Of a DNA stretch of 45,542 bases, positions 6,616-24,724 are shown one piece after another. The position numbers and the translations under genes were made by a program. Each line of letters begins with the position of its first letter. Within the stretch, counting starts at the first letter, position 1. The DNA is from Candidatus Micrarchaeia archaeon (GTDB lineage: Archaea > Micrarchaeota > Micrarchaeia > Micrarchaeales > CABMGC01). The stretch is taken from assembly GCA_049966915.1 (NCBI GenBank), contig JBMFTS010000002.1, positions 1 through 45,542 on the forward strand. Direction: 5' to 3'. The notes under the pieces are model-generated. The model was given only the letters and a program-made list of their open reading frames with translations. It made no database searches and was not told the origin of the DNA.

Positions 6616-6620
6616 TGGTC

Positions 6621-6701: not shown

Positions 6702-6722
6702 TTTTGTTGCCTATTCATTATT

Positions 6723-7454
6723 ATGTCGAACGTGCTTGCCGACGCCGCAGCAACCTACTCTAGAAACATACGGCTAGTGCTCCTGTTCTCAATTCCTTTT
6801 CTTATTTCTTTCCTAATCCCGGTTGTCGCTCCTTTGCCGGCATATGTGTCAGGCGGGGCCATATTTCTCAGGACATCGGGCTTGTTCGTCAACACCAATC
6901 CCATTTCGCTTGCTATAATAGTGCTCGCTTTATTCTTCTCGCTGCTTTTCTTGAGTTTCGCATTCGTGGCTATAAGCCTGATAGTAAAGGCGGAGAAGAC
7001 GCATACCGCAATAACAAAGTCGGTGCTCCACAACCTCGAAAAGTACACGGGCAAGGTTTTTCTCGTGCTTCTCTTCTACGTGTTCGTGATCATGCTTGCA
7101 GACATCGCCGGCTATTTTGTAAACGCTTCGGGCATCGTCACCGCGGTAGTCGGCTTTTTCGCTTTCATGGCGATTTTTTACGCGCCTACAGCGATAGTAA
7201 TAGACAACAAGCGCATAGGCGTGGCCCTGAAGGACAGCGCCAGGCTCTCTTTCAACAGGCCCCAGTATTTCCTGCTTTGGCTTGTGCTCATAATAGCAAC
7301 AGTGTCGCTGCTCGACTTCCTGCTAATTCATTCGGTCGGCGGCGTTTATTCGGCGTACGCCCTTCTTGTCATCAACTCGCTGTTTGTTGTGCCGTATTTT
7401 GTAATATACCAGGCGCACGCGTACATGCGCAGATTCCAGATTCTTAGGCACTAA
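6723..7454 (+). CDS. Polytopic membrane protein (about 6 TM), first gene of the operon, not a member of the paralog family
   Basis: The ORF track starts it at TTG 6615, inside the rRNA processing stem. ATG 6723 (MSNVLADAAATYSRNIRLVLLF...) is preferred. The protein is very hydrophobic, lacks the R-x5-R-x2-GG motif, and matches no family I recognise. Confidence 0.7.
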   Translation: MSNVLADAAATYSRNIRLVLLFSIPFLISFLIPVVAPLPAYVSGGAIFLRTSGLFVNTNPISLAIIVLALFFSLLFLSFAFVAISLIVKAEKTHTAITKSVLHNLEKYTGKVFLVLLFYVFVIMLADIAGYFVNASGIVTAVVGFFAFMAIFYAPTAIVIDNKRIGVALKDSARLSFNRPQYFLLWLVLIIATVSLLDFLLIHSVGGVYSAYALLVINSLFVVPYFVIYQAHAYMRRFQILRH

Positions 7455-7490: not shown

Positions 7491-8681
7491 ATGCGCGCGC
7501 TTAATATCGGCGTTTTGCTTTTGGCGTTTTTCGCCATGTTCGGGCTTTCAGGCGCAGCCACTACTGCATACGTTTTGCCAAGCTCTTTCATCGCCGCGTC
7601 GCTGCTTGCGCTCACCATATCAATAGACGTAGTCGCTATAGGCTACGTCATTGCAAGGCTTGTGCCAAGCACGGGCATAAGGAGCTGGCTCGACACAGAA
7701 TACTGGGAGCTCGCAAAGAGCGCAATGATAATAATTGGCATATATGCTATCCTGGCATTCATCGGCAGCGTCAGCTTGATTGTTTATAACAGCTATTATC
7801 CAAGCATATCGCATGCCGCAAGCCCTGCATGCGGCTATTCCGCGCAATCCGCAGGCTCATATTCTGCAAGCATAGGCTCGCTAGCATCTGCAGCAGGCTG
7901 CTATCTGAGCAATACGGCAAGCGAAGTGGGCACAGCGATGCAGGACTTTTTCTTTCTTTCAGAGTCGCTGGGCGGCTTAAGAAGCATAACGCTCACAATA
8001 GAGCCTCCGATAGTTCTTCCGGATTTGGTTAATTATCTTCAGTTTGGCTTCTCCACAAAGATTTACGCAAACCAGCTGCTAGAGCAAGGGGTAACTACAG
8101 GCAAGTACGAATCGATGATAAACGACCTGTTTTCCATCATGCTCATACCAATTGCATTGCTCATAGCGGTGCAGCAAGTGGGCTTGGGCTATATAGTTGC
8201 GATAGGCCTGGGCTTTCTCATACCCCTCGGGCTCGTGTTCAGGGCGTTTCCTTTTATAAGGGGCATAGGCGGCACGCTCATAGGCATCGGCGTGGCGCTT
8301 GCGGTGGTATACCCGGCTACGCTTGTGCTGCTCAACATGCCGGTTTCGAACGCGTTCGTGTTTCTGGCGCCGACTACATCTAGTATGACATCCGTAGCGG
8401 CGAGTTCCGGAGTTCCGGTGCTGTTCAATATAGTCGATGCCCTGCTTCCGCCGCCCATAGCTCTCGGCATTCTTGGCGCATCGATCGCTCCTTTATTTGC
8501 ATACGTTGGCGAGATATACACGTTCCTAGACATATACCTTTTCTACGGCACATACTTGCTGCTCCAGTTCCTGCTGTTCATACTCGACCTTGTCATAGTA
8601 TACGCGCTTGGCGATAACATAGCAAGGATGTTAGGCGGCACATTCAGGCTGAGCTTCGGCAACAAGCTCAAGCTCGCGTAG
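7491..8681 (+). CDS. Paralog B of the six-member polytopic membrane protein family
   Basis: Signal-peptide-like N-terminus (MRALNIGVLLLAFFAMFGLSGA) and an extracytoplasmic loop of about 120 aa with two Cys. Motif RAFPFIRGIGG at 8241-8273, followed by TLIGIGVALAVVYP. C-terminal tail ARMLGGTFRLSFGNKLKLA. Confidence 0.8.
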   Translation: MRALNIGVLLLAFFAMFGLSGAATTAYVLPSSFIAASLLALTISIDVVAIGYVIARLVPSTGIRSWLDTEYWELAKSAMIIIGIYAILAFIGSVSLIVYNSYYPSISHAASPACGYSAQSAGSYSASIGSLASAAGCYLSNTASEVGTAMQDFFFLSESLGGLRSITLTIEPPIVLPDLVNYLQFGFSTKIYANQLLEQGVTTGKYESMINDLFSIMLIPIALLIAVQQVGLGYIVAIGLGFLIPLGLVFRAFPFIRGIGGTLIGIGVALAVVYPATLVLLNMPVSNAFVFLAPTTSSMTSVAASSGVPVLFNIVDALLPPPIALGILGASIAPLFAYVGEIYTFLDIYLFYGTYLLLQFLLFILDLVIVYALGDNIARMLGGTFRLSFGNKLKLA

Positions 8682-8689
8682 GTGATGCA

Positions 8690-9868
8690 ATGGCAAACGT
8701 GCTATTGAGCGCTTCCGCGTGCGGTCTTTTGTCACCTAGCGTGAGCATAGGCTACGGCGGCTCGCTTGCTTCTGACTGGCTGCAGATAAACGTGATGCTG
8801 GTGCTGATAATAGTGATGATTTCCAGCCTGCTTTACGCGCTCAGCGCGCTCATGCCTACGCAAAGGCGCGAGAAGCTAAGGGGCGTAGTCCGCTACGAGA
8901 TTTTTGAAGCCATTGTAAGCGTTGTGCTGATATTCATAATAATGGCCATGTCAAGCATGTCGTGTTATATAGGCGCGGGATTGTCGACTTCGGGCACAAG
9001 CAGCGGATATTCTGGCGTTTTCCAGGGGGACGAGCTTTATGTAGGCAATTTGGTGTTTAGCAGGGGTGCTAGCCTTGCCTCGCAGCTTTACACCACTGCC
9101 ATACAATACGCCATAGCTTCGCAGATTGTATCATACGCCGCTTCGCAAATAGACGCGTTTTTTGAAGCCCTTGCCCAAGGAGCGTATGCAATACCTGCAG
9201 TAAACACGAATTCGCTCATAAATATTTATAGCACTTATTCCGGCGTATTTTCGGGATTGTTTGCAGGAATAACCCTTGCAGTATTCAGCGCTTTGTTCAT
9301 TGTGTTCTTGATGTTGCCCGTCGTGCAGGCAATATCGCTTACAGTAATACTTCCTGTGGCGATATTTACAAGGACGCTAGCGTTTACCGGACCCAAGCTC
9401 AGAGAGATTTCCAACACATTCATAGCGCTTGCACTTGGACTTTTCTTCGTGTTCCCGCTAACTATCGCATTCAACGGTTACATCGCCAACTGCATGAATT
9501 TAGGCGTTTCGAATTCGGGCTCCAGCCAGTGCAGCTGGCTCAACACGCAATATCTCACTATTACTCCGCCGCCAATAGCGGTATCATCTTTGTTTACTTC
9601 GACAACTGTATCCGGCGTTAATCTTCCGTTCGATTTCTTTAACGCGATTTCTTCGGCTGGCGCAGCACCAGGCCTGGCAGGCATGTTTTCGCTCATCTTT
9701 GCTGCTCCGACAGTCACACTTAGCTATGCAAATGTGGTGGCAGAGTATGCATTCACCGGGATCGTGCTAATAGCGATAGATTTGCTCATAACCGTCGGTT
9801 TTGTTGCAGGCATAGCAAAAGGGCTTAATGTGATGTCCGGGATAGTCGGAGGAGGTTCGTTCTGGTGA
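8690..9868 (+). CDS. Paralog C (divergent member) of the membrane protein family
   Basis: GGTGAT Shine-Dalgarno-like sequence 4 nt upstream. The aligned motif is FTGPKLREISN (9383-9415), which keeps P4 and R7 but has SN in place of GG. It is followed by TFIALALGLFFVFP with Pro at the same offset. Tail AKGLNVMSGIVGGGSFW. Confidence 0.75.
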   Translation: MANVLLSASACGLLSPSVSIGYGGSLASDWLQINVMLVLIIVMISSLLYALSALMPTQRREKLRGVVRYEIFEAIVSVVLIFIIMAMSSMSCYIGAGLSTSGTSSGYSGVFQGDELYVGNLVFSRGASLASQLYTTAIQYAIASQIVSYAASQIDAFFEALAQGAYAIPAVNTNSLINIYSTYSGVFSGLFAGITLAVFSALFIVFLMLPVVQAISLTVILPVAIFTRTLAFTGPKLREISNTFIALALGLFFVFPLTIAFNGYIANCMNLGVSNSGSSQCSWLNTQYLTITPPPIAVSSLFTSTTVSGVNLPFDFFNAISSAGAAPGLAGMFSLIFAAPTVTLSYANVVAEYAFTGIVLIAIDLLITVGFVAGIAKGLNVMSGIVGGGSFW

Positions 9869-9876
9869 TATGATGA

Positions 9877-11634
9877 ATGCACATGTTTCAAAAGCGGCCT
9901 TTGCGGCTGGTGGTTGTCGTGTTAAAGGTTAGGATTGCGGCTTTAGCTGTTTTGGCAATGCTTGTGCCTTACTCTATGGCGCAGGGCATAGAAATAGCGC
10001 CGCAATCAGCGTTTGGCAATTGGCTTCCAGTCATGTTCGCAGCGGTGCTGCTCAGCATAGTCATAACCTCTGTATACTATGTATTCGGGTACCTGCTAAA
10101 TGACAAGAGGGTAAAAGAAAGGGCAATCACCGAATTTGCACAGGCCATAGGTACTGGAATACTTGTGGTAGTGATAATAGCAGTGTTGGAGCTTGTGGGC
10201 TCTACATTGTTGTCTCCGATATCAGTGCTGTCTGCAGGCAGCGTAAACGGCATTTGCAACAGCCTGGTTAATTCAAAAGTTACATTTCTCAACTCTGCCA
10301 ATTCCGCCTCACCGGTCAATGCCATATGCAACGACATAATATTGCCGTTGGCGTCGGGTTCAAGCAAGCAGTCGCTTACTGACAAGATAGATTACGGGGT
10401 GGCAGCCACTTATGTGGTAATAGCCAATGTCACTAATCAGGCTGCAAACAATCTTGACGCGTTTTATGTATACGACGGCATGATAAGCTTTCTCCGCGAG
10501 CTCACTTCAGTTAACGGCTTCGGCAGCTTCGGCGTGTGGAGCGTAACTTTTCAATATGCTCCTTTGGCAGGCTACAACTTTCTTAGGAAAATGAGCCTCG
10601 CTGTCGGCATAGTAAGCGCGCTAGTCATCGACTCCTTTGCCGCACAGCTCCTGGTAATATTGTTGGTGCTTGTCACGTGGCCGTACGTGCTAGCCGCAGG
10701 CGTAATTTTCAGGGCCACGCCATACACGCGAAGGCTGGGCGGCCTTCTTATAGGAATTGTGCTGGCGTTGCTCGTTATTTGGCCCGTGCTATTTCTGTTT
10801 GAATACGCCTCACTGGGCACTACGCAGTCTTCCTTCCCCATAGGTTCAAACACAATACCGTACACTCCTGTCTATGAACTTATGCCAAACGGCAACGTAA
10901 TGGTTTACGGCGCCTCTTCCGGTTATGAGCAAGTCACTACGCAGAGTATCGCAGGCTGCCCACCAGGCGACTATGTTTACGAAGGAATTTGCGGAGAAGC
11001 CAGTACTGTCGGCTCGCCGCCCGACTGCAAGCTGCCAAGCCAAATTTCGCAATTCCAGATGTGCCAAAACGGCTTCGCTCCAGATAACGCGCTGTGCCAC
11101 AGCGGATCCTATGTATATGAGGGTGTTTGCGGCGATCCGAATACATCTGCCCGTACTGCGCGATGCTTCAACCAAAACCAGGCGGCACAGAGCGGTCTTC
11201 CAATGTGCCCAAGCAGCCCTATTTTGCACGACACCGGAATTGCGCTGTTCCAATTGCCTAACGCTACGGAAACCGTAAAATATTATTCGTGTTGGCCGCC
11301 TTCCGGCAACCTGCCGCAAGCTGAAGCCGAGGCCGCCGCGTTTTACCTAATACCTTTCTTTGGCCTTGGAGCGGCGGCTTATCAAACAATCGCGTCCATC
11401 GTGAGTTCGACGTCGAGCGTATCTAGCATACCGTACTACCCTCCAATCATAACCTGCAGCCCTCAAAACGCTCTCGACACAGGCTTGGCGTTTACCAATA
11501 TCTATGGCATAACAAGCATATCTGCATTCATATTGCCCCTGCTCAACGTGCTAATAATTTACGGCGCCGCAACGAGCTTGTCAAAGCTGCTCGGCGGCGA
11601 AAGCGACATACTGGGCCTTAGCAAACTGATATAG
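9877..11634 (+). CDS. Paralog D, carrying a tandemly duplicated 4-Cys module in an outside loop
   Basis: Motif RATPYTRRLGG at 10711-10743, then LLIGIVLALLVIWP. Tail SKLLGGESDILGLSKLI. A Cys-rich insertion at 10957-11292 is unique to this paralog. Signal peptide ends in SMA-QG. Met3 (9883) is an alternative start. Confidence 0.8.
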   Translation: MHMFQKRPLRLVVVVLKVRIAALAVLAMLVPYSMAQGIEIAPQSAFGNWLPVMFAAVLLSIVITSVYYVFGYLLNDKRVKERAITEFAQAIGTGILVVVIIAVLELVGSTLLSPISVLSAGSVNGICNSLVNSKVTFLNSANSASPVNAICNDIILPLASGSSKQSLTDKIDYGVAATYVVIANVTNQAANNLDAFYVYDGMISFLRELTSVNGFGSFGVWSVTFQYAPLAGYNFLRKMSLAVGIVSALVIDSFAAQLLVILLVLVTWPYVLAAGVIFRATPYTRRLGGLLIGIVLALLVIWPVLFLFEYASLGTTQSSFPIGSNTIPYTPVYELMPNGNVMVYGASSGYEQVTTQSIAGCPPGDYVYEGICGEASTVGSPPDCKLPSQISQFQMCQNGFAPDNALCHSGSYVYEGVCGDPNTSARTARCFNQNQAAQSGLPMCPSSPILHDTGIALFQLPNATETVKYYSCWPPSGNLPQAEAEAAAFYLIPFFGLGAAAYQTIASIVSSTSSVSSIPYYPPIITCSPQNALDTGLAFTNIYGITSISAFILPLLNVLIIYGAATSLSKLLGGESDILGLSKLI

Positions 11635-11641
11635 TGGTGAC

Positions 11642-12832
11642 ATGCGAGCGAGCCGTGCTTTGATGTTTTTTGTCATGTCGTTGCTGCTTTTGTCACTTTC
11701 AAAAGCAGGCATAGGCATACCTACAATATATTCGCCTGTTTCAGCCCAAGCTGCACCTACACTTGCCAATAGCTTTGACAACGCGCTTATGCCCGTATGC
11801 TCCAGCATGATTGCCCCGCTTTCTGGTTTAGGCGGCAGCTATTCTGCGCTGCTGAGCATTTCACTGGCCATAGTGTTTATGGTGCTGACAATACTGGGCG
11901 TAGTGTATGCAATAGGCAGGGCTTTCGGCATACCGGTGCTCATGGAGTTCGTCAAAAAAGAATACTTGGAAAGCATTTTCAACATAGTGCTCATAGTTAT
12001 TGCCGCAGGCGGCTTGGGGTTTGCCGACGCGTCGGTGTCATTTCTTAGCAATCTCGCACTCAGCTCATCGGCAACAGGCCAAGCAAGCGTCAGCAGCATA
12101 AGCAGCGCCAACAGCCTGTATCTTACCCTGTGCAATACATATCTTAGGAATGGCATAACTTACGGCCTAGTCGACATAGTTGTTTTGGTAGGCCCAAACA
12201 TTATAGACTCATCAATGTTGCAAAATCTTAGGGTGAGCATAGGAAACACTAGCGAAGACAATCCGCTGGGCGTTTCTGTGTCGTTTTCGCCTTTCGCTGG
12301 CATATATCCATATGTGCAAGTGCTTTCCGCAGAAAACAATGCAGTTTATGCAATGATTGCGGTATATTTGGGCATAAGTTTCTTGCTTGCAATAATATAT
12401 GGCATATTTCCGCTGCTGTTCTATGCCGGCATACTCCTGAGGTCTTTTCCATGGACGCGCGCTGCCGGAGGCGCGCTGCTTGCGCTTTTCATCTCCTTCT
12501 TCATAGTTTTTCCTAGCATACTTTTCGCATTTGCTAATGCGCCGTCAAGTTACGGCGAGTCATCAGCAAGCATATATACTGGAATTGCTGGCTTTTTTGG
12601 AACAATTGCTAGCTTTTTTGGACCAGCAGTAAGCGGCATACTTGCCGGTATAGGTGCAACATCAATAATTTCGGAAATGGAATCATTTGTCAGCGTATTC
12701 GCCTATGGCGCTTTGCAGTTGCTAGGCTTGATTGTCGCCCTGCTTGTGTCGTTCGATCTTCTGGAGAGCCTTGGCGATCTGCTCGGCGCGCCGTCGCTTC
12801 AGAGCAGGAGCCTGCTTAAAAACGTGATATGA
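11642..12832 (+). CDS. Paralog E of the membrane protein family
   Basis: GGTGA precedes the ATG. Motif RSFPWTRAAGG at 12440-12472, then ALLALFISFFIVFP. Tail GDLLGAPSLQSRSLLKNVI. N-terminus looks like a signal peptide. Confidence 0.8.
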   Translation: MRASRALMFFVMSLLLLSLSKAGIGIPTIYSPVSAQAAPTLANSFDNALMPVCSSMIAPLSGLGGSYSALLSISLAIVFMVLTILGVVYAIGRAFGIPVLMEFVKKEYLESIFNIVLIVIAAGGLGFADASVSFLSNLALSSSATGQASVSSISSANSLYLTLCNTYLRNGITYGLVDIVVLVGPNIIDSSMLQNLRVSIGNTSEDNPLGVSVSFSPFAGIYPYVQVLSAENNAVYAMIAVYLGISFLLAIIYGIFPLLFYAGILLRSFPWTRAAGGALLALFISFFIVFPSILFAFANAPSSYGESSASIYTGIAGFFGTIASFFGPAVSGILAGIGATSIISEMESFVSVFAYGALQLLGLIVALLVSFDLLESLGDLLGAPSLQSRSLLKNVI

Positions 12833-13797
12833 TGCTGCCCGTTGCCACAATGATGTTAAGCATTTACAGCGTAATGACGTCGCCGGTCTACGCATGGTTC
12901 CCTGTCGCTATAGCCGGCGCAATTGCCATTATCGCAGTATTGGCGCTGGTATACGAGCTTAGTCCATTTTTCGGAAGAACAGACCTGCGCGCGTGGGCCA
13001 AAATAAAGATGTACGAGGTATTTTTCTCGATAGTTCTCATATTCGTGTTTTTCGCTTTCATGGCCGTATTTTCCAGCATAAACTTCGGGAGCACATTGGG
13101 CCAGCTCGCTCCTAAGGATTGTGCGAGCAACTTCGACATCTATGCTCTTTCGATGTGCGACCTTAACCATTTCCAAAGCTACGTGGCGCAGTTCAACAAT
13201 CTGGTGTTCGTGGCCATGTTTTCTACTGTTCCAAGTACCGAAATAGGGGTAAAATTGCCTGATTTTTCAGCTTCAACTAGCATTTCTGGCGCGGATGCCG
13301 CATTCGGGTTCTCATTTGTGGAATTGAGCATACTTTTCGCGTTTTACATGCTTAGCGACGTTCTTCTTTTGCTGCTATCGGTCTCACTTCTGCTTTTTGC
13401 AGTGTTCATGGCGATTGGTCTTATTTCCAGGATTTTCGAGGTAACAAGGACTTTTGGCGGGGCAATGATCGCCTTCGGAATAGGCTTGGGTATGCTATTT
13501 CCGTTGCTTATCGCTTTGTCGTACGGCTTTGTCGACGTTGCCGTTTCCAAAGCAGCTAGCCTAGTTACCATTTCTGGTTTGGAGAGTGCCTTGCTAGGTA
13601 TCATTTTCGCTCCGCTTGGCGCGGCCCTTGCTATCGATGCGTTAGTAAACTTTTTTGTATTTGCCGGTTATATTATAGCAGGCATAGTGTTCCTGCCAAT
13701 TTTTACGCTTACAATAGTGGACGTCTTTATACGTGACTTTTCAAGGGCGGTCGGCGAGCAGATGAATTTTATGAGCATATTGACAAACATGATATGA
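12829..13797 (+). CDS. Paralog F of the membrane protein family
   Basis: ATGA start/stop overlap with paralog E. Motif RIFEVTRTFGG at 13429-13461, then AMIAFGIGLGMLFP. Tail SRAVGEQMNFMSILTNMI. C-x11-C pair (CASNFDIYALSMC) in the first outside loop. Confidence 0.8.
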   Translation: MMLPVATMMLSIYSVMTSPVYAWFPVAIAGAIAIIAVLALVYELSPFFGRTDLRAWAKIKMYEVFFSIVLIFVFFAFMAVFSSINFGSTLGQLAPKDCASNFDIYALSMCDLNHFQSYVAQFNNLVFVAMFSTVPSTEIGVKLPDFSASTSISGADAAFGFSFVELSILFAFYMLSDVLLLLLSVSLLLFAVFMAIGLISRIFEVTRTFGGAMIAFGIGLGMLFPLLIALSYGFVDVAVSKAASLVTISGLESALLGIIFAPLGAALAIDALVNFFVFAGYIIAGIVFLPIFTLTIVDVFIRDFSRAVGEQMNFMSILTNMI

Positions 13798-13815
13798 GGC
13801 GATGATACGGACAAG

Positions 13816-14910
13816 TTGCCTACTCTAGTTTATGCAATCGTGTTTATTTCGCTGTTATTCGGCATTTCATTAGCCAGAATCATCACAGCCCCGCCGCCAC
13901 CGCCTCGTGTCGTTGGTTCTACAGTGTCATCGTGCCCGCAGATTGCGCAGGCAGTCGCTCCATGGTATTGCAACCAGATAAATCAGGCTGCGGCAGCGAT
14001 ATGGGCCAAGTGGGAACCGATAGCTGCGGTAGCGGCATTTGCATCTTTTGTCCTTGCAGTCATAATATTCACAATAGGCATAGCAATAAGGAACAACAAG
14101 GTCAAGGAATTCGGAATAGGTGAAATGTACGAGGCGGTTGCCACTATTATCATGGTGGTGATGTTTCTGTTCATCTCCGCTACAATGTTTGGAATACTGC
14201 CTGCAATTACGACCGGAAATATAGATCCATATACTGTTGCGCTTACATACATAAGCAAAAACATAAACGAGACGCTATACCTGCAAAGAATAATGTTTAA
14301 TTCTTATATGATAGGCAGTTATTATGCATCCATATCCCTGATCGTAAGTATTGGCGATTCGTCAATACCGATTTCAATGCTGTGGAACTTGCCGGTAACT
14401 GTTTATTATTTGCTCCCGGTAGACGCAATTTCTTCAATTGTTCTGGAAGCATTGCTTCTGCTTTATACAGAATTCTACATGATACTTTTCTTCATGTATG
14501 CCAGCATACCTGTGTTTCTTATACCGGGCATAGTGCTTAGGGCGCTGTTCCCGACGCGCAGCGTTGGCGGGATGATGATTGCCATAGCAATCGGCTTTTA
14601 CTTTATCATGCCAATTCTGTTTGCCGTTGCGTTCTACTTTACTAGTTCGAGTGCGCTGGCTTCTGTATACTCCGGTGCGCAAGCAATAGCGGCTAACGGC
14701 CAGGGCAGCTCGAGCATAACAAACGCCATAAGCCCGACAAGCCCGCTTGTTCTAGCGATCAAGAACATACAAAGTGGAATGGGGGCCTATTGGATGAGCA
14801 TACTGTTTTATCCTGCGCTTATAATAGCCATAGTATACGAAAGCATAATGGTCATCGGAGAATTTATAGGCGGATTTGCGAAATCATCTGGATTGCTCAG
14901 GGCGATATAG
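13816..14910 (+). CDS. Paralog G of the membrane protein family
   Basis: TTG start with GAGG 17 nt upstream. Motif RALFPTRSVGG at 14539-14571, then MMIAIAIGFYFIMP. Tail GEFIGGFAKSSGLLRAI. An APPPPPR stretch and a C-x11-C pair (CPQIAQAVAPWYC) follow the N-terminal helix. Confidence 0.75.
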   Translation: MPTLVYAIVFISLLFGISLARIITAPPPPPRVVGSTVSSCPQIAQAVAPWYCNQINQAAAAIWAKWEPIAAVAAFASFVLAVIIFTIGIAIRNNKVKEFGIGEMYEAVATIIMVVMFLFISATMFGILPAITTGNIDPYTVALTYISKNINETLYLQRIMFNSYMIGSYYASISLIVSIGDSSIPISMLWNLPVTVYYLLPVDAISSIVLEALLLLYTEFYMILFFMYASIPVFLIPGIVLRALFPTRSVGGMMIAIAIGFYFIMPILFAVAFYFTSSSALASVYSGAQAIAANGQGSSSITNAISPTSPLVLAIKNIQSGMGAYWMSILFYPALIIAIVYESIMVIGEFIGGFAKSSGLLRAI

Positions 14911-14911
14911 C

Positions 14912-19069: not shown

Positions 19070-21409
19070 CTAGACTATAAGTCCGCTCAAGTCTTCTATG
19101 CTGACAAGCTTTACGTGGCCGTATTGTATTGCCACTTTTAACACCTCAGCGGTTTCTGTGAACGCGCTGTAAAGCTTTTTAGAAAATTCCGAGAGCGCTT
19201 CGTTGCTGACAAATACTATGAATATGTTGTCGTTTGCGTCTATTTCGAACCGCCTCATACCACTTTTCCTGGAGTAGATTATCACCTTTGCCTGCCTGCC
19301 TTTTTTCGTTATGAGCATGTCTGCACTAGGTTCTGCGTTGAGCTCCGTGAAGAGCACAGCGTGTTCCACGCAGTAGTCCCTGAGAGCCCTAAACACCACA
19401 AGGTATTCTATGTCGTGTTTGGAAATCGAAATCCATTGGGCGAGCGCGTAATAGCCCGATTCTTCGATTATTGCGCCTGACTTGGTCAATGTGTCAAGAA
19501 TAAGTTGCGCATTCTGCGTTGTAATTGATACTGGCACGTTGTTGTAGCGTATGTAGCTTGCTATGCCGTTCTTGAATTCTTCGAGCGTGAGTGGCATGAA
19601 ATTCCAGTGATAATAATAGTTGACTTTTTCAAAAACCCCGAGCATGTCTTCCGGCTTTGTTTTTATCACTTCCCTTTTTTCAGGGAGAAACGTGGGCACG
19701 TCTATATAATATTCGTCGCGGTTTGGAGGTTTTAGAACAAGGTTGAGGAGCAATACCGCAAGCAGCACTACGCCGACTTCTATGTAAAACGCGGGTATGT
19801 GCATTATTTCCTTTGAATAAGTAGTGGTGTAGTTTATTCTCTGACCGAATACGTCTATGCTGAACTGCTGCTTGCCATAGCTTATTATGGTGCCCTTCGG
19901 CAAATCATACTCCATTACGCCTGAAGAAATAGGCACTATCTCGCCGTATGCTTTGTCAAAACTTACCTGCGCCTTTGCGCTTACCGGAAACGTGCCGCTA
20001 TAAACGTCAAATTCGAATGTGCCGTTCTTGAAATTCAAATTCACCGGTGTTATGTTGAGTGTTGGCACTGAGAATAGGGCAGCCGTGTAGTTTTCGTTAT
20101 ACTGGTTTCTTAAAATCGCAATATAAGTGCCGGTCGGCAGCGAAAAGCTGTGTGTGAGCACTATTTGTACGCTGCCTAAAAACGTGTGGAGAATACTTAC
20201 GGAAGTGACATAGCTCATGTTTGTGTCTAATATGTCTATGTGAAGCTGTGATTGCGTGCTGACGCTGCTGTTTATGCCAATGGAAACGTTTTGCGTATCG
20301 CTTATTACGCTTGGCATCGACATTGTGCCATGCAGCACGTACTTTGATCTGAAAGGCGCAAGCACGTATTCGAAAGCCGAGGCGTTGCCAACGCCAAGCC
20401 TCAGCAGCGAGTATGTGCTGTTCAGTGCGGAAATCTCAGCAGTATTATTGGGCATGGGGATGCGCTGCAGGTTCGTGTATATGCCTATTGCGCCAGTGCC
20501 GTTTGACACGTTTTCTATGCCATATGCAAGCCTGTCAAGCCAGAAATCGGCGCTTATGCTAGAAGCCAAGCTGTACGCCTGCACGCTTGCGTTGGGCCAG
20601 GCAACATTGGGATAGTTTGAAAATGCTATAATGGTGCCATTGTGCACGTTAATGTATGAAATGCCGCCATACCGGTTGCCTGCACTAAAAAAGAACGTGG
20701 GCTGTTTGAAGGAAGAATTGAGCTTTGCTTCCTCGCTTGCATTCATCACCGAATACGCAGGCATTGTCGATATGCCATATGCCGCAAGTTCCGATGTGAC
20801 ATTTTGCGGAGTGACAAATATTACGCCGCTTGTGCCTATCGCTTTGCTGAAGTTGCGGCCTACGTATATCACGGTGTCGCCGTTGTCAAGCAGCTTGAAA
20901 ATGCTTATTGACTGGTTCTCAAGCAGCGGCAAGGGCATAAGACCAGAAGCTATTATCACTATGGAGTTGTTTATGTGTTGCAGGTCCTGCATTGGCACGT
21001 ATGAAAAGCTTGAAGAGTTGATCAAAAGGCCGAACGCGCTGAGTTCCCTGCTTAGGTTTTCATAAACCGCAAGCCCGTCGAACGCGTCTATGGAATACCT
21101 GCTCGTGTTTACCAAATAGATGCGTTTTATGGGATTTTGGGCATAAACCGCAAGCGATATGTTGGCCGTCGTCACGTTTATTGCAGAGTAGTTTGCAAGG
21201 GCGTAGTCCACCAATTGCATGCCGTTTTCATAATCGAAAAAAGAGCTCTCGACCTCGCTTATCGCTGCGCGCATGGGCGCCTGCTTTATCGCAGGCGCGG
21301 CCTGTATTTTTTTGAGCGCAGCCGCGGACATGCTTGCTATCGCAAAAACAAGCAGCAGAACGACAACTACCAGTGCGGCCCCTATTATTATGAATTTTTT
21401 GCCTCGCAT
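19070..21409 (-). CDS. Bitopic surface glycoprotein: signal/anchor, ectodomain of about 520 aa, TM helix, cytoplasmic domain of about 220 aa
   Basis: N-terminal helix FIIIGAALVVVVLLLVFAIA. I counted about 26 N-x-S/T sequons in the ectodomain. Second TM is FYIEVGVVLLAVLLLNLVL (about 19733-19800). The cytoplasmic tail (19073-19732) includes a winged-helix-like stretch, LILDTLTKSGAIIEESGYYAL. Confidence 0.75.
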   Translation of the reverse strand: MRGKKFIIIGAALVVVVLLLVFAIASMSAAALKKIQAAPAIKQAPMRAAISEVESSFFDYENGMQLVDYALANYSAINVTTANISLAVYAQNPIKRIYLVNTSRYSIDAFDGLAVYENLSRELSAFGLLINSSSFSYVPMQDLQHINNSIVIIASGLMPLPLLENQSISIFKLLDNGDTVIYVGRNFSKAIGTSGVIFVTPQNVTSELAAYGISTMPAYSVMNASEEAKLNSSFKQPTFFFSAGNRYGGISYINVHNGTIIAFSNYPNVAWPNASVQAYSLASSISADFWLDRLAYGIENVSNGTGAIGIYTNLQRIPMPNNTAEISALNSTYSLLRLGVGNASAFEYVLAPFRSKYVLHGTMSMPSVISDTQNVSIGINSSVSTQSQLHIDILDTNMSYVTSVSILHTFLGSVQIVLTHSFSLPTGTYIAILRNQYNENYTAALFSVPTLNITPVNLNFKNGTFEFDVYSGTFPVSAKAQVSFDKAYGEIVPISSGVMEYDLPKGTIISYGKQQFSIDVFGQRINYTTTYSKEIMHIPAFYIEVGVVLLAVLLLNLVLKPPNRDEYYIDVPTFLPEKREVIKTKPEDMLGVFEKVNYYYHWNFMPLTLEEFKNGIASYIRYNNVPVSITTQNAQLILDTLTKSGAIIEESGYYALAQWISISKHDIEYLVVFRALRDYCVEHAVLFTELNAEPSADMLITKKGRQAKVIIYSRKSGMRRFEIDANDNIFIVFVSNEALSEFSKKLYSAFTETAEVLKVAIQYGHVKLVSIEDLSGLIV

Positions 21410-21578: not shown

Positions 21579-22310
21579 CTATCCTTTTAGTTCCAGGTAG
21601 CCTAGGCTTACCATCTTGTCAAGTATCTGCTCCACCCTGGGCTCGGGTATCTTGTACGTTTTTGAAAATTCTCCTATGTCTATCGTGCTGTCGTGCACTT
21701 CAAGCCAATCCTGCACCATCGCCATTAGCGCTTCGTCCGAATATGTTTGCAGGGCGTTGAGCTGTTCCTGCAGTTTCTTGTTTTCCTCGCTCAGTTGCGA
21801 AGCCTGTATGGTCAGGTTGTGGTTCGATACTGTGAGCTCGCTCGCAAGTTTTCTCAGTTCGGCGTATTCCGCCAATAACGCGTCGTACTTGTTGAAAAGC
21901 GAACTGTAGTTTTCGTTGAGCCCGTCGAGCAATTCCGTTATTGACGAATCCACATATTGGAAGAACTTCTGCTGGTCCACCCTGAAATCGTCGGCTATCA
22001 CGGCAAGCATTCCTGCCACATTTTTGATTACAGTAGCACGGCGCATCCTCTCGCTAGTATTCGGCACTATCGAATAGGTGAGAAATACGCCGTCTTTTCT
22101 CAGCTTGACAATGTAAAACAGAAAAGGCTCCTTCCTAACATTCCTGCTTTCTACGTGCACTACATCTAGTTCGTCTGCGCTCTGGGTTATGGAATAGAAC
22201 GGGATCTGTGCGAGTTTTGCGCGTATAGCGTCAAAGCTGCTTACCACTGACCCCGGAAATTGCACCTCTTCGACTTTCGGTTCAGGTATTTCTTCTTCGG
22301 CCACTCTCAA
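21579..22310 (-). CDS. Cytoplasmic coiled-coil protein with a C-terminal winged-helix-like domain
   Basis: TTG start preceded by GGAGG. The central heptad-rich segment is NKYDALLAEYAELRKLASELTVSNHNLTIQASQLSEENKKLQEQLNALQ. C-terminus is IGEFSKTYKIPEPRVEQILDKMVSLGYLE. Confidence 0.65.
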   Translation of the reverse strand: MRVAEEEIPEPKVEEVQFPGSVVSSFDAIRAKLAQIPFYSITQSADELDVVHVESRNVRKEPFLFYIVKLRKDGVFLTYSIVPNTSERMRRATVIKNVAGMLAVIADDFRVDQQKFFQYVDSSITELLDGLNENYSSLFNKYDALLAEYAELRKLASELTVSNHNLTIQASQLSEENKKLQEQLNALQTYSDEALMAMVQDWLEVHDSTIDIGEFSKTYKIPEPRVEQILDKMVSLGYLELKG

Positions 22311-22504: not shown

Positions 22505-22897
22505 TCAGCGTTTGCCAGTGTGCCTACTTTGCGCCGTTGCCGCGTTTTCCTGTTTGGGCATCTTAAGCTTGGGCGTGTAACTGAGCAACGAAAACGCGTA
22601 AAGCAGCGCAGTTACGAGTATGCCTACTCCGAGCGCGTAAAGCTTGTCCGATGCCACGAACAGCGAGAACAGCGTGAAAATAATACCCAGTGCAAGGTAG
22701 AGTTTTTCCCTGCCTTCATATTTTTTGCGCATAATTGCGTATTTCGGGTAGCACTCTTTGCAAACGACCAATCTGTTTCCTTGTTCGTTCTTTGTAACGT
22801 TCCTTTTGAACCATCTTATTGTGTTTATGACCCAGTCCTGCTCTACTTCTATACCCTGCTTTTCCTCGCCGCAGACTATGCAAATGCTCTTTGCCAT
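22505..22897 (-). CDS. Zn-ribbon protein with a C-terminal 2-TM hairpin
   Basis: CIVCGEEK...VCKECYPKY (CxxC...CxxC), followed by LYLALGIIFTLFSLFVA and ALGVGILVTALLYAFSLL. The ATG shares one nucleotide with the upstream TAA (TAATG). Confidence 0.65.
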   Translation of the reverse strand: MAKSICIVCGEEKQGIEVEQDWVINTIRWFKRNVTKNEQGNRLVVCKECYPKYAIMRKKYEGREKLYLALGIIFTLFSLFVASDKLYALGVGILVTALLYAFSLLSYTPKLKMPKQENAATAQSRHTGKR

Positions 22898-23196
22898 TAT
22901 GATCCCAGCTCAAGCTCTACGAGCTTTCCGTATTCTTTCTTTATCTTTTCTTCGTCGAGCATGTTCATGACGTTGGTTATTGTCACGTCGTCTATTCCCA
23001 AGCGTCTTAGCACGTTCACTACTTGCTCGGTCTTCAGCCCGGATTTTTCTAGAAGCCCGGCAAATGACACTGCGTTTACGTGCCTGTGCTGCTTGTTGAG
23101 CTCGCCGAGCAGTTCCTGCACTGTTTTTTCGCTCACTCCTATGAGCGTAAGCATGCGCTGGAGCTTCTGTCGCGACACAGTGAATGTGGCTCCCAT
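22897..23196 (-). CDS. Small soluble protein, a paralog of the C-terminal tail of the adjacent ATPase
   Basis: Start taken at Met14 (MGATFTVSRQ...), which removes the overlap with the ATPase gene. The segments MLTLIGVSEKTVQELLGELNKQH and LLEKSGLKTEQVVNVLRRLGIDDVTITNV align with ATPase residues about 435-498. Confidence 0.6.
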   Translation of the reverse strand: MGATFTVSRQKLQRMLTLIGVSEKTVQELLGELNKQHRHVNAVSFAGLLEKSGLKTEQVVNVLRRLGIDDVTITNVMNMLDEEKIKKEYGKLVELELGS

Positions 23197-23218
23197 ATTG
23201 TTTACCTTGTTTGCATTG

Positions 23219-24724
23219 TCAAGTAACGTACACAAATGCCCTTGTTATTACCGAATCGGGCAGGCCTATCGCCCTGAGAAAGCCGACTATTGCTTCCTTG
23301 CTTACCTGCTTGCCCAAAAGCAGCTGCACGAGGCTTCTTACGTCGGCAAGCCTGCCTTTTGCGTCCAGCTGTTTGAAAACGTCCTCTATGATTTCAGACC
23401 CGACGTTGTTTTCTATCAGCTTTGCGCTTATGTCCGCCTTTTCAAGGAAGTATTCCTTTTGCACGGTTTCGTCGGCGAGCTCGCTCTGGCTCAGTATGTC
23501 TGCAACGTTTATTGTATATACGTCTAGCGGCACCTCTCCAACAACCCTGTCGAGCAGAAATATTTCTGGAAACTCCACATTGGTTTGAAATGACATGTCG
23601 ACTGCCGCCTGGCCCACTCCGAACTTGCTTATTTCGCGCCTCATAAACTCGGAAAAATTGAGCGAGCCCTGCAGATAATCGAGGAAGCGCTCGAATCTTA
23701 TTCTTAAGATTATGTTAGTGCCAACGTTTGAAAATATTGCTTCGTTTATGTCAGTGGGGTTTTGCGATGCCACGATAAGGCCAAACTGGTATTTGCGGCC
23801 TTCCCTTATTATCGTCACCGCGTCGCTTCGCTCGTCGCTTGCTATCTTCCATGCTTCGTCGAGCACGACAAGCGCCTTGAGTCCTTTGGTGGCAGACCAG
23901 CCCTCCATTCGCATTTTTTCTTTAAGCGTTTGCAATATGAACAATGCAGCAAGCGCCCTAAAGCGCTCGTCAGGCAGGCCGGAAAGGTCTATGTCCACGA
24001 GGCCTGAGCTAGAGAGCTTGCCAAGGTCTATTGTGCTCTTTCTTGCGAAATAGTCCTCGCCCTCCCTTGCAAACTGCCTGAGCCTGTATACCGCGTTTTC
24101 TAGTTCGGCCGGATACTCGTAAGTGCCTCCCTGCAGCTGCTCCTCAAGAAGCGATATCACCTCCTTGAGCGTTGGCGCCTCTTTGCCCACTTGCGGCGTT
24201 TCTGCCAGGTTGAAGCCCGCATTCACGTATGCCTGCTCTAAAGCCTCTTCGGTAAGCCTCTTCTGTTCTGGATAGTCGCTTATGTCGGTAAGTATCTCCA
24301 GAGAAGTAAGTATCTGCTTGGCGCGGTCGAGCGGTTTCATGCCAGAAAGGTCCATTATGTTGAGATAGTCCCCTTTGCCCAGAGAGACTATCGTGCCGCC
24401 GCTCTGCTTTACCCACGCTTTGTATTCGCCGGCCCAGTCTATTATTATTGCGTTGGTATTCCAGATGAAGCTGGCCCTCGCGAGGAAAGTCTTGACGAAG
24501 AAGCTCTTGCCTGCGCCGGTTATGCCAACTACTGCTATGTGCGGATTTGTAAGGTTTGAAAAGGTCCATGTGAAAGGCACGCTGAAAAGCTTTGTTATGC
24601 CTATGAATATGGAATTGGTCGGATCGTTAAGCAAATAGTCCGCAGGCGGCTCTGGAGGCCTGCTCAATATAGTCCTTTTGCCGAGCTCGTTGCTCATTAT
24701 GTTTTGCAAGCGTAAAAGGCCCAT
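23219..24724 (-). CDS. VirB4/HerA-like (FtsK-HerA superfamily, DUF87-type) P-loop ATPase
   Basis: Walker A GITGAGKS (24503-24526). Walker B VVLDEAWK (23855-23869 covers VVLDE). Also REGRKYQFGLIVASQNPTDI, typical of HerA/VirB4/TraC-like translocases. At 501 aa, with the P-loop at residue about 70, it lacks a long VirB4-type N-domain. Confidence 0.8.
   Translation of the reverse strand: MGLLRLQNIMSNELGKRTILSRPPEPPADYLLNDPTNSIFIGITKLFSVPFTWTFSNLTNPHIAVVGITGAGKSFFVKTFLARASFIWNTNAIIIDWAGEYKAWVKQSGGTIVSLGKGDYLNIMDLSGMKPLDRAKQILTSLEILTDISDYPEQKRLTEEALEQAYVNAGFNLAETPQVGKEAPTLKEVISLLEEQLQGGTYEYPAELENAVYRLRQFAREGEDYFARKSTIDLGKLSSSGLVDIDLSGLPDERFRALAALFILQTLKEKMRMEGWSATKGLKALVVLDEAWKIASDERSDAVTIIREGRKYQFGLIVASQNPTDINEAIFSNVGTNIILRIRFERFLDYLQGSLNFSEFMRREISKFGVGQAAVDMSFQTNVEFPEIFLLDRVVGEVPLDVYTINVADILSQSELADETVQKEYFLEKADISAKLIENNVGSEIIEDVFKQLDAKGRLADVRSLVQLLLGKQVSKEAIVGFLRAIGLPDSVITRAFVYVT

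Follow-up and report, generated by a model that had tools for sequence, protein, structure and literature searches.

Among described systems, the one whose layout comes closest to the locus discussed here is the rvh system of the Rickettsiales, in which VirB6/TrbL goes with VirB3-VirB4 in the inner-membrane complex of a type IV secretion system (T4SS). Rickettsiales encode virB3 and virB4 in one operon with four to five tandem virB6 paralogs (PMC7648143), and the conservation of VirB6 is centred on the central transmembrane (TM) domains and on the cytoplasmic loop between the third and fourth of them (PMC6120205). Archaea have chromosomal, “domesticated” T4SS-like systems for DNA import, namely Ced (CedA, CedA1, CedA2, CedB, and CedD) and Ted (TedA, TedB, and TedC), which combine a VirB6-like polytopic protein with a VirB2-like pilin and a HerA/VirB4-like ATPase. 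The Patescibacteria (CPR), an ultrasmall and host-dependent lineage, also retain a chromosomal T4SS-like system, and in the one species tested, epibiotic growth requires it (PMC12102498).

We analyzed the first 45,542 nucleotides (positions 1-45,542, hereafter the window) of contig JBMFTS010000002.1 from Candidatus Micrarchaeia archaeon (GCA_049966915.1), an ultrasmall symbiont of the Micrarchaeota. On balance, we favor the view that six proteins encoded there, B through G, are the VirB6-like polytopic membrane module of a chromosomal, type-IV-secretion-like, trans-envelope machine of all the Micrarchaeota relatives that we examined. The six genes are collinear on the + strand at 7491-14910, where a preliminary description of the sequence had placed them, and all encode polytopic membrane proteins: B (7491-8681, 396 amino acids), C (8690-9868, 392 amino acids), D (9877-11634, 585 amino acids), E (11642-12832, 396 amino acids), F (12829-13797, 322 amino acids), and G (13816-14910, 364 amino acids). 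The gaps between them are 7-18 nt, except for a 4-nt overlap between the stop of E and the start of F, and this spacing suggests one operon. Lys, Arg, Asp, and Glu are as scarce as had been claimed (5.6-9.1% of each protein). The preliminary description recognized no named family and allowed that a well-annotated one might turn up, but none of the six proteins has a match in Pfam (nothing at E <= 1), NCBIfam, PHROGs, PADLOC, or PDB sequences. About 30 orthologs of B were found, and all are from Micrarchaeota and annotated as hypothetical. B-G are a real and hitherto unannotated family of membrane proteins.

All 15 pairs among B-G align to each other by hhalign, using alignments of the ortholog groups, with probabilities of 93-99% and E values of 3e-7 to 5e-17 (93-97% for C against the others). 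Other membrane proteins from the same cluster (A, p280, and p274, described below) reach less than 1.2% against B-G, so the similarity is not an artefact of composition. The comparison shows that the six proteins are true paralogs, as had been proposed, that duplicated and diverged anciently. The proposed motif R-x5-R-x2-GG-x13-P is indeed present in five of the six: in B (RAFPFIRGIGG...P, residues 251-275, nt 8241-8315), D (residues 279-303, nt 10711-10785), E (RSFPWTRAAGG...P, residues 267-291, nt 12440-12514), F (residues 201-225, nt 13429-13503), and G (residues 242-266, nt 14539-14613). It is absent from every other stop-to-stop ORF in the whole window. We would expect only 0.0003 of the six proteins to contain it by chance (20,000 composition-preserving shuffles per protein). 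The exact motif is found in 13/13 orthologs of B, 14/16 of D, 16/17 of E, 12/17 of F, and 17/17 of G, and each paralog has a private signature (for example, RAFPFxRGIGG in B, RSFPWTRAAGG in E, and RAxxPTRxxGG in G). Paralog C is a divergent sixth member, as had been described, with four extra residues between the Arg and with S/A-N/D in place of GG, but it does not lack the motif: both Arg and the Pro are retained in 16/16 of its orthologs in the family alignment. The conservation of these three residues across 96 family members, including those of C, is 95-100%.

The preliminary description overlooked a second conserved element, an acidic E-x2-E with which TM2 begins (conservation of E70 is 80%; F has K instead). 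The common C-terminal tail that it did report is real and contains a conserved Gly (G382, 86%). It also reported C-x11-C in both F and G; these exist, but their positions are not homologous, as the one in G is before TM1 and the one in F is in the loop after TM2.

We infer that B-G follow the plan of VirB6, in which five TM segments connect an outside N terminus to an inside C terminus and TM2 is followed by a large outside loop. Each subunit would begin outside with a signal-like leader. TM1 and TM2, the latter starting with E-x2-E, would be joined by a short, basic loop in the cytoplasm and followed by a large outside helical/beta domain. Next would come TM3, the cytoplasmic R-x5-R turn, and TM4, with GG near its cytoplasmic end and the invariant Pro halfway along the helix. 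Beyond a variable loop on the outside, TM5 would lead to the cytoplasmic tail with its Gly. The distribution of hydropathy and charge in B-G, and the helices predicted by AF2, agree with the published topology of VirB6, and as in VirB6, conservation is strongest in the central TM helices and in the TM3-TM4 cytoplasmic loop (PMC6120205). In the AF2 model of B (pLDDT 73.7, pTM 0.69), the R...R motif forms a tight turn between two long helices, H209-251 and H254-288 (pLDDT about 90). Hydropathy and charge put this turn and the K/R-rich TM1-TM2 loop on one side of the membrane, which by the positive-inside rule is probably the cytoplasmic one, as had been suspected. The outside loops are very unequal in length and in Cys content. 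For instance, D has a Cys-rich outside insertion of roughly 226 amino acids between TM4 and TM5, and the orthologs of D are long in every genome (473-626 amino acids).

Despite the similar topology, B-G have no detectable sequence similarity or significant fold similarity to VirB6. The preliminary description had suggested a comparison to VirB6/TrbL, and this gave no significant match of either kind: hhalign of B-G against four VirB6 sequences gave less than 1%, and Foldseek with the model of B gave no significant fold match, with VirB6 of R388 only at rank 17 (E = 5.8, TM 0.25).

B-G belong to a larger conserved cluster, also overlooked at first, with a VirB4/HerA-type ATPase and two proteins that resemble the N-terminal domain of VirB4. 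Together with the VirB2-like pilins of relatives, these place B-G in the functional world of type IV secretion, Ced, and Ted rather than leaving them as orphans. The order of the cluster is A, B-G, p280, p274, ATPase, p98, p130, p243, and p779. It is contiguous in loci L008-L019, while an inversion has rearranged it in the window and in L004-L007. In the window, the second half is inverted (19070-26435, - strand). All six of B-G have 1:1 collinear orthologs in 16 GTDB genomes of Micrarchaeota and on 2 other contigs, which disposes of the possibility that these genes are not co-conserved elsewhere. Within the array, no paralog has been lost, gained, or reordered in the 16 genomes, even though orthologs are only 30-45% identical. 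Such strict conservation in a fixed order is what one would expect if the six formed an obligate hetero-oligomer. Because the best 120 of 1,114 homologs of the ATPase are all at least 69% identical (the named ones are all labelled Micrarchaeota except for two with bacterial labels), the neighbors are housekeeping genes (23S rRNA, AlaRS, TBP, and L21e), and no relatives were found in IMG/VR, the cluster appears to be chromosomal and core.

The ATPase (23219..24724, - strand, 501 amino acids) is from the HerA/VirB4 superfamily and lacks an N-terminal domain and a TM segment. It matches DUF87, AAA_10, and P-loop_TraG in Pfam and, far below the cutoffs, CedD, VirB4-like CD1110, CedB, HerA, and TraC in NCBIfam. 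As the best of these are CedD and CedB (for CedB/CedD, 73 and 60 bits, as compared to cutoffs of 600 and 700), there is a likeness to Ced. But its scores are about equal for the HerA, CedB/CedD, and VirB4 models. It also matches HerA and VirB4 (4ag5) among PDB sequences, the alignments that cover its full ATPase domain are those to VirB4, TraC, and CD1110, and its plasmid matches are mostly traC genes (4,619 of 5,000 records are conjugative). From these matches, we assign it to the HerA/VirB4 clade.

Upstream of the ATPase are two paralogs, p280 (25593..26435, - strand) and p274 (24768..25592, - strand), with a hhalign probability of 96% (E = 3e-9). Both have an N-terminal hydrophobic hairpin, which is followed by a soluble domain of roughly 220 amino acids in p280 and by an alpha/beta domain in p274. 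In the genomes that are not rearranged, p280 directly follows G. The best Foldseek match of the AF2 model of p274 (pLDDT 78.2) is 7o42_E, with a modest TMq of 0.37 (E = 0.03, probability 0.99, 192 columns; the part of VirB4 that aligned was not reported), followed by 7o41_B and chains of 8rtb_A/8rtd. Of the first 14 PDB fold matches, 9, including the first five, are TrwK/VirB4 chains of R388. So p274 is a candidate for the equivalent of VirB3 plus the N-terminal domain of VirB4. By hhalign, neither p274 nor p280 matched VirB3 or VirB4. There are precedents for a VirB4 N-domain as a separate or partial module in TrsD (PMC12102498) and in the N-terminal domains of CedB and CedD (PMC11868833).

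The pilin candidates are from relatives. Small proteins encoded upstream in these genomes match TrbC/VirB2 (best E = 5.7e-4) and T4SS_pilin (2.4e-3); the matches are full-length but below threshold, and they were obtained for 5 of 7 members. We found no VirB2/TrbC-like candidate of this kind in the window. A profile of the relatives' pilins aligns with the N-terminal TM hairpin of paralog C (residues 34-95; probability 80%, E = 1.4e-5), which parallels the reported relations of VirB2 to VirB6 and of CedA1 to CedA (PMC9905601).

Because B-G share one conserved cluster with a VirB4/HerA motor ATPase in every relative examined, they are probably the channel or platform in the membrane for a type-IV-secretion-like machine that has not been described before, and their strict co-conservation suggests that they probably assemble as a hetero-oligomer. 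The simplest model would be a pseudo-six-fold ring with one copy of each subunit. Obligate hetero-oligomeric rings of paralogs include Mcm2-7, CCT, and the alpha and beta rings of the eukaryotic proteasome. Conceptually, these are similar in that a fixed number of ancient paralogs have private signatures and none is lost singly, but they are soluble and their ring order has been demonstrated, while for B-G, we only infer assembly. The conserved cytoplasmic face of the ring (E-x2-E, the two Arg, and the tail) could dock a hexameric ATPase via p280 and p274 as membrane-anchored adaptors. ATP hydrolysis might then drive the extraction and assembly of VirB2-like pilins or the passage of a macromolecule, either DNA or protein, through the platform, and the extracellular part could consist of p779 and the outside domains, especially the Cys-rich insertion in D. 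Stoichiometry, substrate, and direction are, like the assembly itself, parts of this proposal. A likely use in a host-dependent DPANN archaeon would be for exchange or uptake where it is in contact with its host; for the only Micrarchaeon that has been cultivated so far, the host is from the Thermoplasmatales (PMC8975820).

As in rvh, a VirB4-type ATPase and a small partner with two TM segments are found in synteny with the tandem paralogs (PMC7648143), and the organism depends on a host and has a reduced genome. Unlike in rvh, there are six paralogs instead of four to five, and each is strictly fixed in all relatives examined. Also unlike in T4SSs, the equivalent of VirB4 appears to be split into an ATPase-only protein and two membrane-anchored N-domain-like proteins, and we did not recognize VirB8 to VirB11, VirD4, or a relaxase in the cluster. 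In Ced, too, the function of the VirB4 N-domain is spread over separate polypeptides (PMC11868833), and the polytopic protein has an N-terminal hairpin similar to the pilin (PMC9905601). However, the CedA-like proteins of Ced and Ted number one or two rather than six, both systems belong to Thermoproteota rather than DPANN, and the accessory genes here are A, p98, p130, p243, and p779. The CPR system shares a separate protein related to the VirB4 N terminus (TrsD) and arrays of VirB2-like pilins (PMC12102498), but it is recognizably homologous to monoderm conjugation (MPF-FATA; the VirB4, PrgI, VirB6, and PrgH profiles match), and it lacks a six-paralog membrane array.

Alternatively, B-G could be interchangeable or specialized VirB6-like subunits of the ATPase-driven machine that form their own homo-oligomers or are swapped according to substrate, host, or condition. 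The tandem virB6 paralogs beside virB3-virB4 in Rickettsiales are a precedent for which such a role has been proposed (PMC7648143), and the great variation of the outside loops, such as the insert in D, would make sense. Nevertheless, we think that this is unlikely: alternative subunits usually vary in copy number, which the array does not, every paralog has kept a private signature, and the tight spacing suggests co-translation. It is less likely still that B-G, perhaps with A, form a complex unrelated to translocation (for envelope or S-layer anchoring, uptake of lipids or nutrients, or ion conduction, for example) and are near the ATPase because of ancestral synteny without functional coupling. 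B-G do lack demonstrable homology to any T4SS component, the single cultivated Micrarchaeon is host-dependent and lacks many biosynthetic pathways (PMC8975820), and in the window and L004-L007, housekeeping genes separate the array from the ATPase genes without any apparent loss. On the other hand, 11 of the other distinct loci continue beyond G; all of these contain both halves of the cluster, and in 10 of them the halves are neighbors. (L016 ends at G and was left out; L001 and L002 are copies of L008.) Furthermore, families of transporters, enzymes, and channels do not match B-G either, and both the topology, which is like that of VirB6, and the hairpin of C, which is like a pilin, agree with a T4SS context.

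We give very little credence to the idea that the cluster is an integrated mobile element (a remnant of a conjugative plasmid or ICE) or a HerA anti-virus defense system, with B-G as accessory membrane proteins. It is true that the ATPase matches TraC of conjugative plasmids and the HerA, mad8, and DndH models of PADLOC, but the latter are generic P-loop matches, and no partner protein matches a defense model. Scans of the cluster's genes with Pfam and NCBIfam showed no integrase, relaxase, coupling protein, NurA, or Sir2. Also, the cluster is in every Micrarchaeota locus examined, amid housekeeping genes, with divergence that looks vertical, and as mentioned above, no relatives were found in IMG/VR.

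The cluster has several other genes. A (6720..7454, + strand), a polytopic membrane protein of 244 amino acids directly upstream of the array, is not a paralog of B-G and has no hit in Pfam, but 9 loci have a gene with 50-75% identity to it just before B. Its start is likely the ATG at 6720, as the longest ORF (from 6615) overlaps the 3' end of the 23S rRNA. Directly after the ATPase is p98 (22897..23235, - strand), a small soluble helical protein of about 98 amino acids from Met14 that was found in 15 loci (of which L001 and L002 duplicate L008). It is followed by p130 (22505..22897, - strand, 130 amino acids), which is conserved there and has a CxxC...CxxC zinc ribbon and two TM segments. 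p243 (21579..22310, - strand) is cytoplasmic, has a coiled coil, and may end in a winged-helix domain; its only Pfam matches are weak ones to coiled coils. Most loci on contigs that extend far enough have it downstream of the ATPase. The final conserved gene, p779 (19070..21409, - strand), encodes a large surface protein without matches in Pfam, NCBIfam, or PDB sequences. Its N-terminal TM is followed by an outside domain of roughly 500 amino acids with a wealth of N-x-S/T sequons, then by another TM and a cytoplasmic domain of roughly 215 amino acids. Finally, two genes lie upstream of p280 only in the window's lineage, and neither matches a Pfam or NCBIfam family: p153 (27583-28044, - strand) has an archaeal type-IV-pilin-like signal peptide (MHKAQSSFELL...), and p381 (26508-27653, - strand) is a TM protein with a Ser/Thr-rich outside part, whose homologs precede p280 only in L006 and L007.

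The six membrane-protein genes B to G are ORFs that follow one another on the plus strand of the window, exactly where the preliminary description had placed them: B at 7491-8681, C at 8690-9868, D at 9877-11634, E at 11642-12832, F at 12829-13797, and G at 13816-14910. Neighbouring genes are separated by 7-18 nt or overlap by 4 nt, which is typical for a translationally coupled operon. (In NCBI, the proteins of the window, a contig from a DPANN archaeon in the phylum Micrarchaeota, have the locus tags ACP5T3_00290 and onward.) The pairwise similarity among the six proteins is weak by BLAST or phmmer, so we assembled a set of orthologs for every paralog out of related genomes and aligned the resulting six profiles against one another with hhalign. 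The probability was 93-99% for each of the 15 pairs (E = 3e-7 to 5e-17), and the alignments often covered nearly the full length. As a control for composition, the same profiles were compared with three other membrane proteins from the neighbourhood (A, which is encoded upstream of B, and p280 and p274, which are discussed below), and the probabilities were under 1.2%. The six are paralogs, as had been proposed from the sequence alone, and the control comparison rules out A as a seventh.

Five of the six proteins (B, D, E, F, and G) have the motif R-x5-R-x2-GG-x13-P in its exact form, and none of the window's other ORFs has it. Given 20,000 shuffles per protein, it would be expected by chance in 0.0003 of the six proteins. 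In an alignment of 96 members of the family, the proline (P275, in the numbering of B) is conserved at 100% and the two arginines (R251 and R257) at 98% and 95%. Paralog C had been set apart as a divergent member. It does have a 4-residue insertion between the arginines, and S/A-N/D replaces GG, but both arginines and the proline are kept in 16 of 16 orthologs. The C-terminal tails of the six, which had been described as related, have a conserved glycine (G382, at 86% in the family alignment), and Y138 is conserved at 81%. We also found an acidic pair that had gone unnoted: E70-x2-E73 opens TM2, and its residues are conserved at 80% and 64%. Every paralog has its own private version of the conserved motif. 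The original observation is confirmed, with these refinements.

From hydropathy, the distribution of charges, and the helices of an AlphaFold2 model of B, we predict five TMs, with the leader or N-terminus outside. TM1 and TM2 would be joined by a short K/R-rich loop, TM2 and TM3 by a large outside domain, TM3 and TM4 by the R-x5-R turn, and TM4 and TM5 by a variable outside loop, and a short basic tail would follow TM5. The loop between TM1 and TM2 comes out on the same side as the R-x5-R turn, and by the positive-inside rule this side would be cytoplasmic; the predicted topology agrees with the earlier suggestion that the arginines mark a cytoplasmic turn. The model (pLDDT 73.7, pTM 0.69, from a 39-sequence alignment) is a bundle of very long helices, at residues 32-57, 63-102, 124-164, 209-251, 254-288, and 333-380, with a small beta element within the outside loop. 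When we compared the model to known structures with Foldseek, the best match in PDB had E = 1.7, and BFVD also had no match below E = 1. Since neither collection gave a match below this level, an ABC-exporter or TTYH-like fold is unsupported, and we dropped both candidates. Paralog D differs in having a 226-residue, Cys-rich insert in the outside loop between TM4 and TM5 (residues ~316-541), with an internal repeat (GDYVYEGICGE and GSYVYEGVCGD). The orthologs of D are long in every genome, so D probably supplies a distinct extracellular domain.

The motif had not been recognized from any named family, and B-G have no matches in Pfam (at E <= 1), NCBIfam, PHROGs, or PADLOC; the profile of the family also found nothing among the sequences in PDB. 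Nevertheless, the family is large. An HMM search of 1.84 billion cluster representatives (from clustering at 50% identity) found 2922 relatives at E <= 1e-3, or 2078 at E <= 1e-10. The best 150 of the 2922 are all B-like. The matches that have names are nearly all hypothetical proteins that are labelled as Micrarchaeota, along with one that is labelled as Marsarchaeota and one from a contig with a bacterial label. The family is nameless in the libraries that we tested, and defining it would annotate thousands of hypothetical proteins.

To study the neighbourhood, we used contigs that encode orthologs of B and a scan of GTDB genomes with the profile of G, which together gave 16 distinct loci from Micrarchaeota and two further copies. 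By BLAST, each of the window's paralogs has a single best ortholog at the same position, with 30-80% identity as opposed to at most 29% identity to the other paralogs. No member of B-G is missing, duplicated, or reordered in any of the loci that we examined. The preliminary reading was to fall if the genes did not stay together in any other genome; the six are clearly conserved together. The cluster begins with A (a 244-aa membrane protein), B-G, sometimes one Gly-rich gene, p280, and p274, and it continues with a 501-aa ATPase, a protein of ~98 aa, a zinc-ribbon protein with two TMs (130 aa), a coiled-coil protein (243 aa), and a ~780-aa protein that has a large outside domain rich in sequons (p779 in the window, which matches nothing among PDB sequences). 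The second half is inverted or moved in the window and in its closest relatives (loci L004-L007). On the synteny map of the window, it lies at 19070-26435 on the minus strand, and genes for an Exo5-like nuclease, AlaRS, and CDP-archaeol synthase lie between the halves. In total, 13 genes are conserved in the window, or about 15 with the pilin candidates and the upstream 635-aa protein that are found in relatives.

Some genes near the cluster are more variable. The gene between G and p280 is absent from the window but is found at 17600-18682 of locus L003 and also in L011, L012, L014, and L017; its product has a TM segment at the N-terminus and a region that is extremely rich in Gly. In the window, G is followed by a gene for an Exo5/Cas4-like PD-(D/E)XK nuclease (14876-15808, plus strand; Pfam Exo5, 1.8e-41) that has a cluster of Cys at its C-terminus, and this ORF overlaps G at one end and AlaRS, which starts at 15801, at the other. 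The nuclease gene follows G only in the rearranged subclade (the window and L004-L007), so the nuclease probably does not belong to the machine. In the window's lineage, two proteins are encoded immediately upstream of p280: p381 (26508-27653, minus strand), which is a TM-anchored, Ser/Thr-rich surface protein, and p153 (27583-28044, minus strand), which has a signal peptide like those of archaeal type IV pilins (class III; MHKA/QSSFELLITL...). Homologs of p381 are at this position in L006 and L007 only.

Judging by its family matches, the ATPase is a member of the HerA/VirB4 clade. In Pfam, it has matches above threshold to DUF87 (the central domain of HerA), AAA_10, and P-loop_TraG. Its NCBIfam matches are to CedD, a VirB4-like conjugation ATPase (CD1110), CedB, HerA, TraC, and VirB4_CagE, all with similar scores (46-73 bits) that are far below the cut-offs and favour no one subfamily. 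Alignments across the full ATPase domain were obtained with VirB4 and TraC (PDB 4ag5; VirB4 residues 414-683). At least 5,000 plasmid records match it, of which 4619 of the 5000 best-scoring are conjugative, and among the matches listed, most are on TraC genes. The ATPase has neither an N-terminal domain nor a TM segment. It is far more strongly conserved than B-G: the 120 best matches of the homolog search are all orthologs, with identities of 69% or more. In NCBI, bacterial labels ("Candidatus Saccharimonadales" and "Aquilonibacter"; P0027, P0251, and P0307) are attached to a few orthologs of B or of the ATPase. These are nevertheless 72-77% identical to the ATPase of Micrarchaeota and are probably from mis-binned contigs.

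The two proteins encoded before the ATPase, p280 and p274, are paralogs of each other (hhalign 96%), and both combine a hydrophobic hairpin at the N-terminus with a soluble alpha/beta domain of ~210 aa. When an AlphaFold2 model of p274 (pLDDT 78.2) was compared to PDB, TrwK/VirB4 chains from the R388 T4SS were the top five matches and 9 of the 14 best. The best was 7o42_E (E = 0.03, probability 0.99, 192 columns; which part of VirB4 was aligned is not reported), and 7o41_B, 8rtb_A, and several chains of 8rtd came next. We found no match between p274 or p280 and single sequences of VirB3 and VirB4 with hhalign, and profile searches of PDB gave chance matches only. Because p274 lacks a P-loop and the ATPase lacks the N-terminal domain of VirB4, we infer that p280 and p274 may be membrane-anchored equivalents of VirB3 and of the VirB4 N-terminal domain. 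There are precedents for a split VirB4: the T4SS of monoderms and Patescibacteria include TrsD, a separate protein that is related to the N-terminus of VirB4 (PMC12102498), and CedB and CedD have N-terminal domains that each superpose on a different part of the VirB4 N-terminal domain (PMC11868833).

Candidate pilins are encoded near the cluster in relatives. Upstream of A, non-rearranged loci encode one or two small proteins of 122-174 aa, each with a signal peptide, two hydrophobic helices with a basic loop that joins them, and conserved Cys near both termini. Next comes a conserved polytopic protein of ~635 aa that has no family match. We found these candidates in at least six relatives (L001, 4424-7553, and L003, 6792-9108, both including the ~635-aa protein, as well as L009, L014, L017, and L019). 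Five of the seven small proteins have full-length matches below threshold, of which the best are to TrbC/VirB2 (5.7e-4) and T4SS_pilin (2.4e-3). In a profile search of PDB, they had chance matches only, and no pilin. Their profile also aligns with the N-terminal TM1-loop-TM2 hairpin of paralog C (80%, E = 1.4e-5, 62 columns) and weakly with the other paralogs; Beltran et al. reported that CedA1 is related to CedA, and VirB2 to VirB6, in a similar way (PMC9905601). The window has no gene for a VirB2/TrbC-like pilin. In L003, a separate pilus locus with T2SSE and T2SSF lies just upstream of this region.

The preliminary description had also suggested a comparison with VirB6/TrbL (PF04610), and this gave no significant similarity. 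None of the six proteins matches the domain in Pfam at E <= 1, and hhalign between each ortholog-group profile and a shallow alignment of four plasmid-derived VirB6 proteins (from pTiC58, pAt, Ensifer, and Acetobacter) gave under 1%, although an alignment of this depth could miss a very remote homology. In the Foldseek search with the model of B, chains of TrwI (VirB6) ranked 17th and 21st (7o3v_G and 7o3v_J), with insignificant scores (E = 5.8-6.1, TM 0.19-0.28). On the other hand, the predicted plan of B-G is shared with VirB6, which has its N-terminus in the periplasm and its C-terminus in the cytoplasm, with about five TMs and a large outside loop (PMC6120205). The conservation is also placed similarly, as in VirB6 it centres on the central TMs and the cytoplasmic TM3-TM4 loop (PMC7648143). 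Furthermore, across 16 genomes, B-G are encoded with a HerA/VirB4-type ATPase and a candidate VirB3-like partner, as VirB6 would be (these assignments are based on the family matches of the ATPase and the fold matches of p274 to VirB4). The closest known layout is in the Rickettsiales, where virB3, virB4, and four or five tandem virB6 paralogs form one conserved operon (PMC7648143). By analogy, B-G may work like VirB6; membership in that family is not demonstrated by sequence or by fold.

Overall, in its parts list and in its layout, the cluster corresponds to a chromosomal T4SS-like machine of the Ced/Ted kind in reduced form: a motor of the HerA/VirB4 type, candidate VirB3/VirB4-N-like anchors, in relatives a VirB2-like candidate pilin, and B-G in the place that is expected for a polytopic protein of the VirB6/CedA/TedA type. 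Among the cluster genes that we scanned with Pfam and NCBIfam, there is no coupling protein (VirD4) or relaxase, and the only TrwB/FtsK-like signal is a weak match on the ATPase. As far as we know, Ced and Ted also lack both. Other kinds of machinery fit less well. No protein of the cluster matches the T2SSF platform or the PilB/FlaI-type ATPase (T2SSE) of type IV pili and archaella. A partner nuclease or effector such as NurA or Sir2, as in HerA-NurA repair or HerA-based defence, was not found either: PADLOC reports generic HerA, mad8, and DndH on the ATPase and nothing on its neighbours, and we rejected a defence system. More generally, an origin from a mobile element or a defence system seems unlikely, as the distribution looks vertical across all of the relatives that we examined, housekeeping genes flank the cluster, the cluster genes that we scanned include no integrase, relaxase, or effector, PADLOC matches to partner proteins are absent, and we found no relatives in IMG/VR.

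We observe six ancient paralogs that are always together, in a fixed order, and linked to an ATPase module of a hexameric class. They could be alternative subunits that do not assemble together, as in the model for the Rickettsiales, but copy number does not vary at all. They could also be independent of the ATPase module in function, which would fit with their separation in the window; yet the array and the module co-occur in all of the genomes and adjoin each other in most. We favour the assembly of B-G as one hetero-oligomer, which would most simply be a pseudo-six-fold ring. The conserved cytoplasmic face (E-x2-E, the two arginines, and the glycine of the tail) would dock the ATPase via p280 and p274, the GG and the invariant proline might make TM4 flexible for gating or for pilin extraction, and the variable outside domains together with p779 might build the external part. 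The cargo could be pilin alone, DNA, protein, or something else.

DPANN archaea such as Micrarchaeota must somehow connect to their hosts and obtain material from them, and to our knowledge no machine in this phylum has been assigned to the task. With 13-15 conserved genes and such a strongly conserved motor (at least 69% identity across the best 120 homologs), the cluster is a concrete candidate. The one Micrarchaeon that has been cultivated so far depends on a host, which belongs to the Thermoplasmatales (PMC8975820), and the Patescibacteria, which are likewise an ultrasmall lineage, have a chromosomal T4SS that is essential for epibiotic growth in the one species tested (PMC12102498). These parallels favour a role at the host interface, which is our most attractive hypothesis. 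A bolder version, which we would bet against as a whole, is that all of the Micrarchaeota examined carry an essential trans-envelope nanomachine in which the six paralogs form a hetero-hexameric pore, each of them paired with one of the six protomers of a VirB4-like motor that is itself split (into an ATPase hexamer and alternating p280 and p274), and which is used to take DNA, proteins, or lipids from the host. If true, it would be the first intrinsically asymmetric T4SS-type translocon built from paralogs.

Domesticated T4SS-like apparatuses are already known in archaea as a kind. What is new is the six-paralog membrane module, what appears to be a split VirB4, and the DPANN setting. We did not find this cluster or family described in the literature on type IV secretion, VirB4, or VirB6 in DPANN or Micrarchaeota, nor is the cluster described in the paper on the cultivated Ca. 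Micrarchaeum harzensis. It is of clear interest for DPANN symbiosis and for the evolution of T4SS, where it would be a third domesticated lineage in archaea, beside Ced and Ted, and would offer a naturally split VirB4. The six-paralog module could also reveal how platforms of the VirB6 type are arranged around an ATPase that is a hexamer.

Finally, the array is preceded in the window by a complete archaeal 23S rRNA gene (3790-6622, plus strand). No 16S or 5S gene adjoins it in the window, so the rRNA genes are unlinked here. For A, the longest ORF begins at 6615 and overlaps the 3' end of the 23S gene, so a start at 6720 is more likely. Farther upstream, a gene at 900-2756 (minus strand) encodes a 618-aa protein of no obvious identity, which would be multi-TM in its N-terminal half and soluble in its C-terminal half.
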